Assembly: GCA_965202625.1 (NCBI GenBank)
Contig: CBDBBI010000010.1
Coordinates: 416,001 to 480,000 of the forward strand
Direction of reading: 5' to 3'
Origin: a bacterium
GTDB lineage: Bacteria; UBA8248
Length of the DNA stretch: 64,000 nt
A program made the position numbers and the translations under genes. Below the pieces are notes generated by a model. The model was not told the DNA's origin and ran no database searches. It saw nothing but the letters and a program-made list of their open reading frames with translations. Positions 24,660 to 31,497 of this stretch are shown piece by piece; position 1 is the stretch's first letter; the number at the start of each line of letters is the position of its first letter.

Positions 24660-24689
24660 TTGTCCCGACGGTTCGGGTCATAATATAAT
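24660..24689 (+). promoter_or_regulatory. Putative sigma70 promoter for the partner-helicase module
   Basis: TTGTCC-18 nt-TATAAT about 50 nt upstream of ATG 24741. Confidence 0.5.
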
Positions 24690-24740: not shown

Positions 24741-27131
24741 ATGACAGTCGAGAACAGCAAGATTGTTGAAGCGATAAAGGATTGGGCGCGTCGCTTATGG
24801 CGTCGAATAACGAGCTCAACTCCCGAGGAAGAGGATGACTCGCGCAATCCGCCAGATGGAACTGGTGAACCCGAATCACAAAATGCGCCAACAAGACGCG
24901 AACCGGAGCGAGAACCACCAGACGCGCGTTCCGGCGATATCGATCCTATAGATGATACCGATCCTGTAATGACTCGCCCCGAACCTGAACCCCTCGTTTG
25001 CGATGCGGGTGATGGGCAAGACGGCCTGCCTCGACCACCCGACCCACCACCGCCTGAGACTTCTGAGCCTACAGGCAATGCCCCAACGGGGGAGGGTGAA
25101 GAATCAACGGAACCTACGCTAAAGGCCTCAAGCGAGATTGGGGGGGAGGGAAAACGCAATGGGACTTCGACGAAAAATCCCCAGAAGATATCAGAAGATA
25201 ACAACGAAATGGATCGCAAATTCACGCCTCGCCCAGAGATCATTTGCCGAAATCTCCGCGGGCATTGGAAAGTGTTTCTGTCCGTAGATGACGAATGCGG
25301 CGTCAAGGAGGTGCGGCACAGCGGCGGCGAAACTTTGCCCGTGTCGGACGGCGAATATCCCCTCCCGTCCTTAGCCGGAAGCTTGTCTGTCGTCCTTGAG
25401 GACGATGGGCATAGTGAATTGATAGTTCCTTTGTTTGACGGCAAACCCCTCATCTTCAAGTTGCAGGAGGATTGGACCGGCGACGGACACAAGGTCGAAC
25501 GCATCACGAAGGGGTACTTCGTCGTCATCGCGCCGAACACCTGGACGCGCACGGGGCGCATTCGCGTGGAGTCGCAAGAGTGCGTAGATCCAAACTTCAA
25601 AGCGCACTATTTCTTTCAGCAACCAGGTGAAGCAGAGGCGGACGTGGGCGGCTTTAAGGAATACTCCGGGCCGTTGTTCGCCAATTCTTCCCTTACGCTC
25701 AAGGGCGAGCGCGTTTTTGACGACTCTGATGAAGGGGAGCTGTTCATAGGCGCCGTTCCAGAGTTGACTCCCTCGCAGGAAATCGCCTGGGTAAGGGTTG
25801 GCGAAGAACGGACGGGCGGCTGGAAGGGCGATAGCTACAGGCCGGACGAGAAAACTCTCGCTGACGTGCTGAACGACCGGCAAGGGCGGTTTTATGTCCG
25901 CGTTTACGGCAACGAGTCGAAGAAGATGGTGGATAGCGATCAGTTTCGCTATCTACAAAGTCTCAAAGAGATTCGTGTAAACGATGAGCTATATACGAAA
26001 GACGTGATTCTTGCGCCGCCTCCTGCAGGGTATCCTCCGACAGAGGTGTGCTTTGTCGGCGTCGATGGCGCGCCCATTCGCCCCATCTTGCCGTCCGAAG
26101 CAGCGCACGTGAAAGTGCTAGGGAGCGATCTCATCGTGGATCCGGTTCCGTGCAGCGACAACATATCGTGCGTGCTGGAGTCCGACACCGGTCGCGTCGA
26201 TATCGTCTTGAATCTGCCGCGCATCTGGTGGCGGATGGCGCGAGGCGGTGAGGAAGCCGATGAATGGCGAGATACCCCCCTGACGATGACGCGACAGGAA
26301 TATCGTGCGAATGCGGAGGCGGAAGCGGCAATTCATTTGCGTCTGCCGCGAAAAATCAAGTCGGTTCTCGTGGGTTTCGGGGATGAGGGGGATCGATCAT
26401 ACCGCCAGAAAAAGACGGGAGACGACATCGCGATTCCACTGATGAATTTCGCCGATTATACGCAGATTGACGAGCGGCTGAAACAGGACGCCTTGTTTAA
26501 CGCCCGATATGGCGAGGTAGATTGGACGCTTGTCAGGGTTTTTGCCGACCCCGCGCCGAGGATCGTCTCCTTCGAGTCGGAACCAGGGAAGATTGCGGTC
26601 GGAGGGACGGCGACGTTGCGTTGGGCGACCAAGAACGCGGAGGCTTGCGGCGTTCAGATCGATTCCGGAATCGGGGCGGTCGAACCTAACGGGAGTCGTG
26701 AGGTTGCGCCCTTGAAGAACACAACCTACACGCTGAGGTTGACGGCTCCCTATGTGGATAAGGTGATGGGAACTGTTCATGTGACCGTCAGCGTGCAGGA
26801 GTCGGGCACGACACCACCTGTCGTCACAACGGTGGACTATATGGCCGCGTCAACGACTTATGACGAAATGTTTGAAGAGGCGCTTGATGTCGTCAAGAAT
26901 CGCTTTTTACTCTCGGTGCTGCTCGCCAAGCGGGTGGCACAACTGCGGCAGGGGGCGGAGCCCCTGGTCGCCGCGCAGCCGAGGGACACGCAGCCGAGGG
27001 AGACGCATGAGCAGATCGTGTTCCGGGAAATTATCGAGGAGAAGCTGGAGTGGCGAAAGACCGCCTCGGCGGCTGACTTTTCCGACATGGACCACGGGTT
27101 TGCGGACGAGGGGTTCGACGACGGAGAGTAG
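24741..27131 (+). CDS. 796-aa helicase-associated protein: disordered N-terminus, beta-rich core, Ig-like domain and C-terminal RNA polymerase omega (RpoZ) domain
   Basis: Pro/Glu-rich residues ~25-155; Ig/PKD-like segment (PRIVSFESEP...ATLRW...TTYTL, 26550-26795); residues 701-796 contain ALDVVKNRFLLSVLLAKRVAQLRQGAEPLV...IVFREIIEEKL. Confidence 0.8.
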   Translation: MTVENSKIVEAIKDWARRLWRRITSSTPEEEDDSRNPPDGTGEPESQNAPTRREPEREPPDARSGDIDPIDDTDPVMTRPEPEPLVCDAGDGQDGLPRPPDPPPPETSEPTGNAPTGEGEESTEPTLKASSEIGGEGKRNGTSTKNPQKISEDNNEMDRKFTPRPEIICRNLRGHWKVFLSVDDECGVKEVRHSGGETLPVSDGEYPLPSLAGSLSVVLEDDGHSELIVPLFDGKPLIFKLQEDWTGDGHKVERITKGYFVVIAPNTWTRTGRIRVESQECVDPNFKAHYFFQQPGEAEADVGGFKEYSGPLFANSSLTLKGERVFDDSDEGELFIGAVPELTPSQEIAWVRVGEERTGGWKGDSYRPDEKTLADVLNDRQGRFYVRVYGNESKKMVDSDQFRYLQSLKEIRVNDELYTKDVILAPPPAGYPPTEVCFVGVDGAPIRPILPSEAAHVKVLGSDLIVDPVPCSDNISCVLESDTGRVDIVLNLPRIWWRMARGGEEADEWRDTPLTMTRQEYRANAEAEAAIHLRLPRKIKSVLVGFGDEGDRSYRQKKTGDDIAIPLMNFADYTQIDERLKQDALFNARYGEVDWTLVRVFADPAPRIVSFESEPGKIAVGGTATLRWATKNAEACGVQIDSGIGAVEPNGSREVAPLKNTTYTLRLTAPYVDKVMGTVHVTVSVQESGTTPPVVTTVDYMAASTTYDEMFEEALDVVKNRFLLSVLLAKRVAQLRQGAEPLVAAQPRDTQPRETHEQIVFREIIEEKLEWRKTASAADFSDMDHGFADEGFDDGE
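26841..27131 (+). other. rpoZ: RpoZ (RNA polymerase omega) domain, in frame within the 796-aa ORF and with its own ATG
   Basis: 96-aa segment from ATG 26841 with the omega signature NRF.L....AKR..QL..GAEPLV and A/F-REI...K, followed by an acidic tail. Confidence 0.8.
26974..27007 (+). repeat. 15-bp tandem duplication inside the omega domain
   Basis: CGCAGCCGAGGGACA / CGCAGCCGAGGGAGA / CGCA, encoding QPRDT-QPRET. Confidence 0.85.
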
Positions 27132-27162
27132 CCTCTCCCCCCTCCGTGCGCGTCAGTTGACG

Positions 27163-27234
27163 CCCATCGACAAACGCCGTCGCAGTGCACACCAGCGCAA
27201 CATAGAGATGCTTGGGAGGTTGATGGATGCCTGA
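27163..27234 (+). pseudogene. Orphan C-terminal coding remnant resembling ribosomal protein L13e
   Basis: Reads PIDKRRRSAHQRNIEMLGRLMDA*, similar to the archaeal L13e motif IPVDKRRRS.H..N.E.L. Its TGA overlaps the helicase ATG (ATGCCTGA). Confidence 0.55.
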
Positions 27235-30200
27235 CGCCAACGACATGCAAACCATACAAACCTGGCCCGAAAAAATTCGACAACGTTACGAGAACTATTT
27301 GATAACCTCCTTTTTTTTTTCAAAGAGCCAAAATTGCGGGAATCGTTCCAGGCGGCTCTTCAAGAAGAGGGGAATCTTTTGAAAGGCCCATGCACCGAAA
27401 CGGACCGGGGCTTCAAGACCGGCTCAAGCGCGAGGGCATTGGCAAAGGGATGTTTTCCGGACGAGAGCGAAGGTATTCTCCCTGCACTGATCGATGCCCC
27501 CTTGTATTCGCATCAGGAAGGAGCCATTCGCGCCGCGCATATCGACGCCCGGAACGTCGTCGTCGCCACTGGTACCGCCAGCGGCAAAACGGAGAGTTTT
27601 CTCTACCCGATCCTTTTCGAGTTGTATCGCCAGCATCTCTTTGGGGAACTCGAAGAGCCAGGCGTGCGTGCGATGATCCTGTATCCAATGAATGCGCTCG
27701 CCAACGATCAGCGCGAGCGTCTGGGCAAAATCTGCAAGCATTTGCGCGATGCAAATTCGGCGTTCGCGCCGACGTTCGGACAATACATTGGGCAGACGCC
27801 CGAATCCGCTACGGACCGTTGGCGCAATGCCGCCGAGCGGGCGAAAGAACGCCTGCCCGGAGAACTCGTATTCCGCGACGAAATGCGAAAGAAGCCGCCC
27901 CATATTTTGCTGACGAACTACTCCATGCTGGAATATCTGCTTATTCGCCCCGACGACAGCCCTTTGTTCGACGATGGCCGCGGCGCGCGCTGGCAATTTA
28001 TCGTGCTTGACGAGGCGCACCAGTATCGCGGCGCCAAAGGCATGGAGATGGGTATGCTCCTCCGGCGCCTCAAGCAGCGGCTGCGCGACGGAGGACGGCA
28101 AGGTTCGTTCCGCTGCATCGCCACCAGCGCGACCATTTCCTCTGGCGAAAGCGATAAAGACAGGCGAGTTGTCGCCGAATTCGCGCAGGAGCTGTTCGGA
28201 GAACCCTTCCAGTCGGCTGGCGTTATTTTTGGCGATACACGGCCGGAAGCCACTGATTGTCCTCCACGCCGCTATCATGCCTTTTTGCGCGCTCTTGAAG
28301 GGGCGTTTCTCGTTCACAGGGACGGCGCGGATGCTGTCGTGCTCAATCGGAAGAGCGAAACTGAGAACGGGTCAAACGCGAAGCCGTTGGAAATCGCCCT
28401 GTGCCGTGAATGCGGCCAGTATTACTACGTTGGTCAGGAGCGAGACGGAAATCTGGGAGAAGCCGTCCGAGACCCCAGTCAACCCGACTTTGGCGTGGAC
28501 TATTACCTGGCAGCGAAGGATGGAGACAAGTGGCTGTGCAGGCTCTGCGGCGCGCTTTCAAAATCCACGTCGAGTTGTGATTGCGGCCCGGAGGTTCGCG
28601 TGAAGGTGAAGAAGTGCAAGAGTCACAAAGGGCACCCCGACCAACTGAAGGAATGCGAGACCTGCGGTTATCAACGCGGCGGCATCGGCGATCCGGTGCA
28701 GGAGATCGTGCATGGCTCCGACGGGCCCAACGCCGTCATCGCTACCGCCCTGCACGAATTGCTGCCGGAAGACAAACGCAAGGTGCTTGCCTTCGCCGAC
28801 AGCCGGCAAGAGGCAGCGTTCTTTGCCTGGTATGCCGAGGACTCCTACGAGAAGCTGCGCGACCGCAACCTCATGTTGCGGGCGATCAAGGCGGGAAAAG
28901 TCGTCCCGGAAGGCCTGTCTATCGACGATCTCCGAAACCGGCTGCACAAAGAGTGGGAGCAGGCTGGTCTGTTCAGGGAGACGGATTCGTCGGAAGGGCG
29001 AGACCGACGGGTGCTGACGTCAATTCTGCGCGAGGCGCTGACGGACGAAAGGCGGCTGTCCTTGAGTGGTGTTGGCCTGGTCAGGTGGTTCGTCAGGATT
29101 CCCGACAAGTTGCATTTGCCGGAAGCCATGCGAGAACCGCCATGGAAATTCACGAATGCCGAGGCGCGGCATCTGATCGGGTATCTCCTGGACGAGTTGC
29201 GCCTGCGCCGCGCCATGGACTTGCCGAAAGGTGCCGCAACGCCTGCATGGGGCGACGTATTGCCTCAACGGCCGCAGCAGGCTTACGGCAGCGGGTCGCC
29301 GGGCAAGCGACCGAACGTCTCTGAATGGGGCAGCCCTCAATCCGCAGTCATCCGACATTTCCTTCACCGGTTGCTTGATGACAGCGGCCTGTCTGAAGAA
29401 GGGAAGCAATCGGCGTCGAGGAAACTCATGAAGGACGTGTGGAAAAAGCTACGGAGTTATTGCGGCGAAACCATCCTTTCGTGCGGACGTGTGAACGGTA
29501 CGTTTCGGCTTGATCCGCGCTGGCTGCGGCTCAAGCCGGTTGCGCCTGGCGAAATCTGGGAGTGCGACACCTGCGCGACCTTGAGCGCTCACTACGTTCG
29601 CGCCGTCTGCCCCCGGAATCGTTGTCCCGGAACCCTGGTGCCCGCCGACGGAAGGCGCCTCGAGAAAAACCACTATCGCATCCTCTACGAAAGCGATGCT
29701 TTTCCTCCCGCTCTGAGGGCGGAGGAGCACACTGCACAGATCGACAGCGACGCGGCGCGCCAAAGGCAGAACGAGTTCAAGAATGGCAAGATCCATCTTC
29801 TCAGCTCTTCCACTACGTTTGAAGTCGGCGTCGATTTGGGGGATCTGAAAGTCGTGTTTCTCCGCAACGTGCCGCCGGAGCCGTTCAACTACACCCAGCG
29901 CGTCGGACGCGCGGGGCGAAGAGAGACTGGCTTGGCGCTGACCTACTGCCGCCGCAATCCACACGACTTATATTACTACGAAGATCCGGGGCGCATAATT
30001 GACGGCGCGGTGCATCCGCCGCGCCTGCGGATGAAGAACGAGAAAATCATCCTGCGGCACCTTGTCGCCACGGCCCTCTCCGCGTTCTTCAGGAAAAACG
30101 TTAGAGCGCGCTTCACCAAAGTAGAAGAATTTGTGAAAGACTGGTCGAGCCCCCGCGCCGCGTCCGATCTCAAGGAGTTTTGCGAGCGCAACAGCGAGTT

Positions 30201-31497
30201 GACGGATTCACTCCGCCAAATCGTTCCGAAGGACATGCGCGAACGAGCGGGGCTCAAGGATGACGCCTGGATTGAGAACGTCGCGGGACCAAAGAGTCGG
30301 CTCGCCAAGGCGGAGGCGGAAGTATGCGCAGATTACAAAGAGATGTCGAAGACTAAGGATACTCTCATCAAGGAGCAGCCTTCCAGGTGGACTGACAAAG
30401 TCAAACAACTGCAAAAACGTATGAAAACCATCGCCGGCGAACAAACCTTGAATTTCCTCTCACGCAAGGCCGTCATACCGAAATACGGGTTTCCGGTCGA
30501 CGTCGTCGAACTCGATACTCGGCCCGAATACGGCAACCGGACGGGCGTCACGCTCCAGAGAGATTTGTCCCAGGCTATCGCTGAATACGCGCCGGGCGGG
30601 AAGGTGGTGGCCAACAAACAAGAGTGGGAATCATGCGGCGTGAAGGTGGTGCCCGGAAAGGCATGGCCAGTCCGACGTTATCAATACGATGACGCCCGCA
30701 ATTTTGCGCAATGGAATGAAGGTGATCCATCCAGCTCGCACAAGCGCCTGGGGAATATGCAAGCTTATGGGAAATACTTGATCCCGGAGTTTGGTTTCGT
30801 AACGCCGTTGTTCAAGAAGCCCGAGAAGCCGAGCCGGCGAGCGCAACGATTGTACACAACCCGGCCGTTCTTTGGAGGCTTCGCTAACGACCCTCGTCTC
30901 GAAACTAAGACAATCCTCGGCGTCCAAATCACTAAAGCGGTGCCTGGTACCCTGGTCATATTATGCGAGGGCAAGAACAGGGAAGGCTTCTATATCTGCC
31001 GTTCGTGCGGCGCCCACATGACAGCGAAGAAAGCCGAGCACAAATCCCCCTCGGGTTCCGAATGTCGAGGCACCTTGGAACGCTTCTCGCTTGGGCACGA
31101 ACTGGTCACGGATGTGGTGCGCTTGCAGTTTCCGGGACTGCGTGACGAATGGAAGGCCTATTCCGTCGCCTACGCTGTCCTGCTCGGCGCGGCGAAGGCG
31201 CTGGACGTTCCGGATATGGACCTGAACGTGACGATTACGGGCGGCGGCGATTCGGATGCGTCCGCGATCGTGCTCTACGACAACGTGCCTGGCGGAGCCG
31301 GACTGGTGGAGCAACTGGAGCGGGAGAGCGTCTTCAGAGAGACGCTTCAAAACGCGCGCGCGCGGGTGGAGGGCAACTGTGGCTGCGACGCAAGCTGTTA
31401 CGGCTGCCTGCGCAGCTACCGCAACCAATTCGCGCATCCGCATCTGGATCGAGAGCAAGCGTTGCAAGCGTTGGAATCCCAACTCGCGCACGCATGA
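27227..31497 (+). CDS. Large SF2 DEAH-box helicase with Zn-binding motifs and C-terminal DUF1998 (Druantia DruE-like); frameshifted at T10 (27311-27320)
   Basis: PLYSHQ, TGTASGKTESF, YPMNALANDQ, TNYSMLE, VLDEAH, TSAT, FADSRQ, STTFEVGVD, QRVGRAGR; several CxxC pairs; LYDNVPGGAG...CGCDASCYGCLRSYRNQ. GGAGGT plus ATG 27227 gives MPDANDMQTIQTWPEKIRQRYENYLITSFFF, which joins the 27334 frame only with T8 or T11. Confidence 0.9.

Follow-up and report, generated by a model that had tools for sequence, protein, structure and literature searches.

An apparent domain swap in a Druantia type III-like operon places a copy of the host rpoZ gene where related proteins carry an eL13-like tail

Introduction

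The closest described relatives of the locus studied here are the Druantia type III defence systems, and in particular the III-B systems, which carry a more compact DruE helicase without PLD domains, as described in the available portions of two reports (10.64898/2026.05.13.724758; PMC12458937). The DruH protein of such systems, according to the accessible part of a cryo-electron microscopy study, consists of a globular N-terminal domain, six immunoglobulin-like (Ig-like) subdomains, and a C-terminal domain (10.64898/2026.05.12.722862). In the parts of the 2026 preprints that were available, both the means by which Druantia-type systems detect infection and the role of the partner protein in the DruH position are called open (10.64898/2026.05.12.722862; 10.64898/2026.05.13.724758). 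Here we analyze a 64,000-nucleotide (nt) stretch of DNA (the window; positions 416,001 to 480,000 of contig CBDBBI010000010.1, assembly GCA_965202625.1) from a bacterium of the GTDB lineage UBA8248, which, judging by its sequence, contains a two-gene Druantia type III-like operon with a multi-Ig-like partner in the DruH position and a compact DruE-like helicase. The partner gene ends in a complete copy of rpoZ, the host gene for the omega subunit of RNA polymerase, and the DNA between the omega stop codon and the helicase start codon encodes the end of a different domain, one related to the ribosomal protein eL13 (L13e).

Plant nucleotide-binding leucine-rich repeat (NLR) immune receptors carry integrated decoys. 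TALON/TOTE systems encode TATA-binding proteins beside a YprA-like helicase, as reported in the available text of a survey of the YprA family (PMC12458937), and the partner studied here resembles both the plant receptors and these systems in being an immune protein that bears a copy of host core machinery. This resemblance is one of layout only, and this analysis points to no known effector directed against omega, S17, or eL13-like domains. Engineered fusions offer a second comparison: in dCas9-omega, as described in the accessible part of the report, a large protein carries omega at its C-terminus (PMC3753641), as the partner does here, whereas the window fusion, unlike lambda cI-omega and dCas9-omega, is natural and part of a defence operon, and its binding to the beta-prime subunit would follow only by analogy with them. 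We found no mention of an eL13-like, S17, or omega C-terminal module in the Druantia main texts searched, in the portions available, the supplementary tables of which may list the partner family; likewise, the main text of the YprA-family survey, as far as it was available, mentions no ribosomal or omega domain (PMC12458937), and a literature search returned no paper linking L13e with Druantia or with anti-phage defence.

Results

Comparison of the locus with Druantia type III

As in Druantia type III, the operon in the window consists of an upstream partner gene and a YprA/MrfA-type helicase gene with DEAD, Helicase_C, and MZB domains. The partner is a chimeric open reading frame (ORF) of 796 amino acids (aa; 24741..27131, + strand), taken from the ORF list and characterized by Pfam, NCBIfam, homologue searches, AlphaFold, and Foldseek; the helicase gene occupies 27227..31497 on the same strand. 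The helicase matches the PADLOC models DruE1 (E 1.9e-156) and DruE3 (E 2.9e-148), with the best stretches falling in the C-terminal two fifths of these models only, and Pfam identified no PLD nuclease domain in it. In being compact and without a PLD match, it is like the helicases of Druantia III-B as far as these are described in the available texts.

The N-terminus of the partner is variable and of low complexity; it is followed by a multi-Ig-like core that is all beta and then by a linker, and the C-terminus is a complete omega subunit. Using AlphaFold, we obtained a model of aa 166-796 with a mean predicted local distance difference test (pLDDT) score of 85.3, in which the core residues, all in beta structure, score above 90; the omega part, which lies outside the cover of the alignment, is modeled with low confidence. 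The predicted chain of Ig-like domains is reminiscent of DruH as described in the available part of the structural study. However, unlike DruH, none of the 10 family proteins examined (the partner and nine homologues) matches the PADLOC DruH models, even at E<=10. The partner was also considered as DruH itself, and this assignment was set aside: PADLOC gave nothing, and a Foldseek search of a PDB set that does not include a DruH structure returned only generic Ig arrays, with template modeling (TM) scores <=0.2. The omega end is recognized by both family databases, with Pfam RNA_pol_Rpb6 (PF01192) on aa 715-769 (32.9 bits, cut-off 26) and the NCBIfam omega model at E 3.2e-11.

A remnant of the family tail follows the omega stop codon

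The stretch immediately after the partner gene, 27133-27234, reads as a stop-free peptide of 33 residues ending PIDKRRRSAHQRNIEMLGRLMDA at a stop codon. The P codon of this peptide begins 31 nt past the partner stop (TAG, 27129-27131). The reading frame is shifted by +1 with respect to the partner ORF, and it closes with a TGA (27232-27234) that overlaps the start of the helicase gene (ATG, 27227), the sequence there being ATGCCTGA. An earlier note on this DNA, made from the letters alone, had pointed out this peptide, its frame, and the overlap of its TGA with the helicase start, and was right in every detail.

We derived a profile from the final 62 residues of 92 partner homologues and ran it unfiltered against the whole six-frame translation of the window (1964 segments, 116,846 aa); the peptide is the only match (E 5.8e-10, 35.4 bits, profile positions 35-62), with the runner-up at E 0.58. 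The full-length family profile, searched against the 3.09-Mb genome, found two places only: the core of the partner (25083..26804, + strand; profile positions 168-729, E 9.9e-251) and 27148-27231, which fits profile positions 767-794 (E 2.8e-5). The 37 positions between these matches, 730-766, are missing. Since it is the only tail-profile match in the window and the only extra match in the genome, the resemblance goes beyond chance, and on these comparisons the remnant (27148..27234, + strand; the last 28 codons and the stop) is shown to be a homologue of the C-terminal domain of the partner family. The descent from an L13e-like partner tail that the earlier note had proposed is thereby borne out, and at a single place among all six frames of the window.

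The partner family usually ends in an eL13-like domain

A search with the partner returned 180 homologues at E<=0.001, and the tail counts given here cover the 120 of these that were listed. Among these 120, 92 conform to the tail pattern and 24 bear a precomputed label for PF01294 (Ribosomal_L13e), and reading each tail individually gave 97 proteins with an eL13-like end (94 whole, 2 with an insertion, and 1 frameshifted). Among the remaining proteins, nine share a fourth type of tail, seven end in a lysine- and arginine-rich (K/R-rich) helical tail, one ends in S17, three have other tails, and three are cut short. Pfam named only S17, DUF4389, and weak L13e among the 28 members outside the tail pattern, and of six other tails searched with Pfam and NCBIfam, the only part to be assigned to a family was the second half of P0080, as L13e.

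Our analysis of the family tails identified the C-terminal domain, which is about 65 residues long and contains invariant residues, as a homologue, by sequence comparison, of the core of eL13/L13e. The PF01294 hidden Markov model (HMM), which has a cut-off of 24.9 bits, gives P0003 a score of 25.3 bits and P0002 one of 18.2 bits. With the profile of the 92 homologues, 75 distinct PDB sequences were matched at E<=1, and the 60 of them that were listed are without exception eL13; the best match has an E of 5.4e-11, with eukaryotic eL13 near 1e-6. These alignments always cover the same 50-residue core of eL13, i.e., residues 19-68 of the 157-aa chain 9e6q_AH and approximately 64-118 in eukaryotic eL13. 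The domain is like the L13e of PF01294 and NF008914 in that it aligns with this conserved core; it is unlike it in comprising approximately 50-60 residues only, in scoring at or below the Pfam gathering cut-off, and in being fused to a protein of a bacterial defence operon. Bacterial ribosomes are not known to contain eL13. The domain is also unlikely to be a component of the ribosome, since it forms part of proteins of 550-950 aa that are encoded in a helicase operon. In one homologue, P0049, the first half of the eL13-like domain is normal and the second half is unrelated sequence, and this gene looks frameshifted.

A scan of species-representative genomes demonstrated that the family with this ending is widespread. 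It yielded 29 loci from many phyla, all in genomes that are metagenome-assembled according to their titles, and in 26 of these the eL13-like tail stands in frame at the end of the partner, with homologues ending in the pattern GFS..EL...G......PIDKRRRS.H..N over the helicase start. The helicase start could be located in 24 of the 26 eL13-type loci, and in 20 of these the helicase gene (starting with ATG in 19 and GTG in 1) overlaps the end of the partner gene by 8 nt, stop codon included; the overlap reads exactly ATGCCTGA in eight of them. The remnant in the window retains this 8-nt stop/start arrangement, with the present stop of the partner 95 nt upstream. It is unlike a family tail in that only the last 28 codons are retained, and these lie outside the partner reading frame.

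The omega end is a recent copy of the host rpoZ gene

Two omega matches of equal score (37.8 bits) are present in the genome, one being the end of the partner and the other rpoZ, located on the same contig at a distance of 733 kb. Comparison of the two regions demonstrated that 26830-27140 (+ strand) is identical to the rpoZ locus at 304 of 311 nt, without gaps, and that the insert contains 11 nt of leader before the ATG, the ORF and its stop (26841..27131, + strand), and 6-9 nt of 3′ flank. The identity to the donor ends at 27137-27140 on the right-hand side, i.e., up to 9 nt after the stop; family homology is visible from 27148, and 27141-27147 can be attributed to neither source. The join on the left-hand side is in the linker after the last Ig-like domain, which is where the homologues begin their eL13-like domain. 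The last 96 residues of the partner are identical to the host omega (96 of 96), and the host keeps its separate rpoZ. In arriving with the rpoZ leader and ATG (26830-26843), the insert may in principle also provide a start for free omega inside the partner mRNA.

The donor is, to judge by this comparison, the rpoZ of this lineage itself. Both omega copies (L002:1417-1707 and window 26841-27131) contain five inserted codons that form a short repeat in the loop joining the two helices and that are lacking in nine congeners, and the rpoZ genes of relatives are only 66-80% identical. In addition, the copying event is young and dates to within the species, since the copy is 98% identical to the genome's own rpoZ (7 differences in 311 nt, 2.3% divergence). 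Four of the differences are within the ORF and all four are synonymous; when polarized using the nine congeners, one is derived in the copy, one is derived in the donor, and two are undecided. No partner or helicase flanking DNA was present in any of the 40 relatives searched, and 26300-27500 matched 22 of the 40 through their own rpoZ only. Comparison of residues 701-796 with 190 candidate proteins of 437-1393 aa found no other omega-ended partner at E<=0.001.

Contigs from public runs cover both junctions

Both junctions are bridged in run X1, by two contigs that cover 26600-26866 and 27095-27500, respectively, with zero differences to the window. In run X3, which belongs to another study, a contig ending at 26842 carries both letters specific to the copy at that end (26833 and 26836), and the donor locus is present as a separate contig with all seven donor letters and its own flanks. 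The loose ends of the contigs containing the donor locus begin at 26830 and 27137. In run X6, a marine metatranscriptome from another study, a single RNA contig covers 26837-27137 in the host version of rpoZ and continues into the 3′ flank of that gene, which places rpoZ of this organism in an independent RNA library. The uncovered parts in runs X3, X4, and X6 carry no weight. Run X3 appears to represent a diverged strain, since it is without 9 nt (three codons) at 27245-27253, which brings it nearer to the helicase N-terminal pattern of the homologues, and contains five single-letter differences within 27219-27295.

Swaps and insertions at the same site in other family members

Three of the 29 genome loci have tails of other types, and these show spacers in place of the stop/start overlap: 100 nt in L031, 73 nt in L034, where the tail is S17, and 75 nt in L035, where the tail is K/R-rich. 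We analyzed these spacers (L031:5015-5122, L034:8038-8118, and L035:7393-7475) in the frame ending 8 nt after the helicase ATG. In L034 this frame contains a decayed tail, with an internal stop and a score of 10.9 bits on the tail profile, and only one non-tail place scores higher among 75,548 pieces from all frames of the 29 loci. All three loci retain intact partner and helicase genes. An S17 domain replaces the eL13-like tail both in P0057 (Pfam E 2.4e-30) and in L034 (L034:7780-8034), two proteins that are 41% identical over their whole length. The S17 tail of L034 is 46% identical at the protein level to the S17 encoded elsewhere in its own genome, with no DNA match, and this swap is therefore old or of outside origin. 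The L035 tail, the L031 tail, and the L038 insertion have no second copy in their own genomes.

Insertions within an otherwise retained domain also occur, and in L022 and L038 these are in frame and at the same site of the domain as the right junction in the window. In L022 the insertion (L022:7707-7755) consists of 49 nt, of which 48 are identical to L022:6486-6534, an internal part of the same partner gene. In L038 (L038:7468-7680), as in P0080 and P0106, 60-70 additional residues, in frame, separate the first half of the eL13-like domain from the second, and they could be assigned to no named family.

A proposed history of the locus

Taken together, the family tails, the remnant profile, and the comparison with rpoZ make it highly probable that an eL13-like tail is ancestral at this locus, that a copy of the host rpoZ was swapped in, and that a remnant with the helicase start was left behind. 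In the ancestral state, the partner ended in an eL13/L13e-like domain of approximately 65 residues, with its stop codon overlapping the helicase ATG by 8 nt. A copy of rpoZ of approximately 311 bp, comprising leader, ORF, stop, and 6-9 nt of flank, then replaced the first 37 or so positions of this domain, in frame at the 5′ side, such that the partner thereafter ended at omega's own stop as a complete omega subunit. The last 28 codons of the old domain were stranded downstream, in another frame and outside the partner protein, where they may now serve solely as a 95-nt leader that carries the ribosome-binding site and start codon of the helicase. The remnant would persist because it is needed for these two signals. 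The most likely route of joining would be an illegitimate, template-switch-like insertion, at a site that has also been hit in other members of the family.

This history agrees with the earlier note's proposal that an rpoZ fragment with its stop codon replaced an L13e-like end. The tests that the note suggested, i.e., the ends of the homologous partners, the Ribosomal_L13e HMM, and the flanks of the host rpoZ locus, all point the same way, and the last of these places the ends of the insert, its own stop included, at 26830 and 27137-27140. The note was unaware that the insert had been copied from rpoZ of the very same genome, to which it is 98% identical. Its statement that the insert replaced most of the domain holds as to the replacement and overstates the extent, which is approximately 37 of approximately 65 positions and forms the first part of the domain. 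The note further described the event as the exchange of one central-dogma mimic for another; that the same slot holds an eL13-like, an S17, or an omega domain in different members is confirmed, and the word mimic is an interpretation.

Several points weigh against this history. No allele from before the swap was found, the nearest homologue among the matches listed being 48% identical, and the ancestral sequence of the junctions and any microhomology there are inferred rather than seen; no junction microhomology is definable without that ancestral sequence. An in-frame join would be expected by chance one time in three, and the split of four synonymous to zero non-synonymous differences, being spread over both lineages, is uninformative on selection on the copy. 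Pfam gave no family at E<=10 for either the 33-aa peptide or the 124-aa ORF in the same frame, and the match of the remnant to the archaeal L13e model of NCBIfam, NF008914, is weak (E 0.0027, 17.3 bits, cut-off 96) and spans positions 48-73 of 83 only. The L035 and L031 spacers give short tail matches that are non-significant on their own. The evidence from the runs consists of Logan contigs rather than raw reads: run X1 may be the assembly's own sample, and where its contig crosses the repeat, the letters of the copy and of the donor are mixed; the X3 contig passes the left junction by 13 nt only; and the X6 RNA contig corresponds to the host rpoZ transcript rather than to the chimera.

The locus belongs to a widespread family with an eL13-like end, found in many phyla, in which the C-terminal slot is replaceable and has been replaced several times, and it is the one replacement for which the donor (host rpoZ, 98%), the ends, and the age are known. 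It is also a clean natural case of a domain swap that leaves the old 3′ end behind, and does so because the start signals of the downstream gene lie inside it. These results bear on the sensing of infection by Druantia-type systems and on the role of the partner, and they raise the question whether the tail decides the binding target of these proteins, be it RNA polymerase, the ribosome, nucleic acid, or a phage protein.

Consequence of the swap for the operon

The helicase reading frame is relevant to what the swap may have done. The N-terminus read from ATG 27227 fits the homologous loci, and this is taken as the helicase start. A run of ten T residues (27311..27320, + strand) shifts the frame, with the long ORF resuming at 27334, whereas a run of T8 or T11 would be in frame. 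This run is five or fewer T in 26 homologous loci; T10 is kept in run X1, and runs X3 and X4 have two letters fewer (T8, in frame). The run could represent either a switching tract or a recent inactivation. Both long ORFs of the operon are intact apart from it.

In one reading, to which we give slightly less than an even chance, the insertion is damage in a decaying locus, in which the eL13-like domain has been destroyed, translational coupling lost, and the helicase frameshifted. The T10 run in the window and in run X1 is in keeping with decay, as are the young and unique nature of the event, the 95-nt gap in place of an 8-nt overlap, and the retention of the eL13-like tail, with its invariant residues, in 97 of the 120 listed homologues. 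The intact state of both ORFs outside the T-run argues the other way, as does the in-frame T8 in two other runs, and the older swapped loci keep intact genes across gaps of similar length.

The other reading, which we hold tentatively and at somewhat below an even chance, is a working exchange, in which the C-terminal omega docks the partner on the beta-prime subunit of RNA polymerase or acts as bait for omega-binding phage factors, with the slot being a changeable adaptor. The whole of omega is kept in frame and the protein is identical to that of the host; other modules occupy the same slot in members with intact genes (S17 in P0057 and L034, and the K/R-rich tail in seven listed proteins); and the helicase T-run is in frame in X3 and X4, the former also containing the copy-specific left junction. 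In the available portions of published work, dCas9 with a C-terminal omega recruits RNA polymerase (PMC3753641) and omega is bound directly by a regulator of a virus-like gene transfer agent (PMC9638019). However, no other long omega-ended protein was found among the proteins of 437-1393 aa, the sequence differences give no test of selection, the sole RNA contig is the host rpoZ transcript, and the invariant residues of the eL13-like domain have been lost. A partner that docks on RNA polymerase or presents omega as bait and a partner that has been crippled appear about equally likely.

A broader proposal, that the C-terminal slot is a changeable bait or docking module holding copies of transcription and translation proteins (an eL13-like one in the majority, S17 in some, and here the host omega), which enter at a recombination-prone site in the old module, we consider unlikely. 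If true, the window would capture a bacterial immune sensor at the moment when it takes up a host protein copy, in the manner of the integrated decoys of plant NLRs, and the eL13-like tail of the family would itself be an old capture.

Alternative accounts of the remnant and the insert

It is highly unlikely, in our view, that the remnant continues to be translated, whether from a small ORF or by frameshifting or re-initiation, and so supplies the second half of an eL13-like domain. Its frame is open over 26785-27234, with an ATG-started ORF at 26860-27234 (124 aa), and the remnant itself contains no stop or frameshift. However, with an event as recent as 2.3% divergence implies, 28 intact codons need no selection to explain them; upstream of 27148 the frame consists of omega DNA read out of frame, which matches nothing; and the remnants in older swapped loci are decaying, with an internal stop in L034.

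An assembly artefact, in which rpoZ reads were misjoined into the partner gene, is more improbable still. Two copies that are 98% identical form a repeat that assemblers may confuse, such mixing is seen in the X1 contig that spans the repeat, and the genome is in 10 contigs with an estimated contamination of 4.69%. Against this, the copy has seven letters of its own and the join is in frame, the X1 contigs cross both junctions without differences, and in X3 two copy-specific letters are joined to the partner, with the donor assembled apart and with its own flanks.

The probability that the peptide after the stop resembles an L13e motif by chance is negligible: the lack of a Pfam match to the remnant, the NCBIfam score of 17.3 bits only for a motif rich in basic residues, and the single, unrelated match (E 0.94) of the 124-aa ORF in a phmmer search of the PDB would suit such an account, but it is refuted by the uniqueness of the tail-profile match in the window (E 5.8e-10 vs 0.58) and in the genome, together with a position and an 8-nt stop/start overlap exactly as in the homologous loci.

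Other features of the operon

A GGGAGG motif (27214..27219, + strand) lies inside the remnant, 7 nt before the helicase ATG, and is a likely ribosome-binding site of this gene, as read from the sequence. The stretch from the partner stop to the helicase start contains no terminator-like site. A promoter-like site (24660..24689, + strand) ahead of the partner gene fits the consensus at 10 of 12 hexamer positions and is proposed on this match only.

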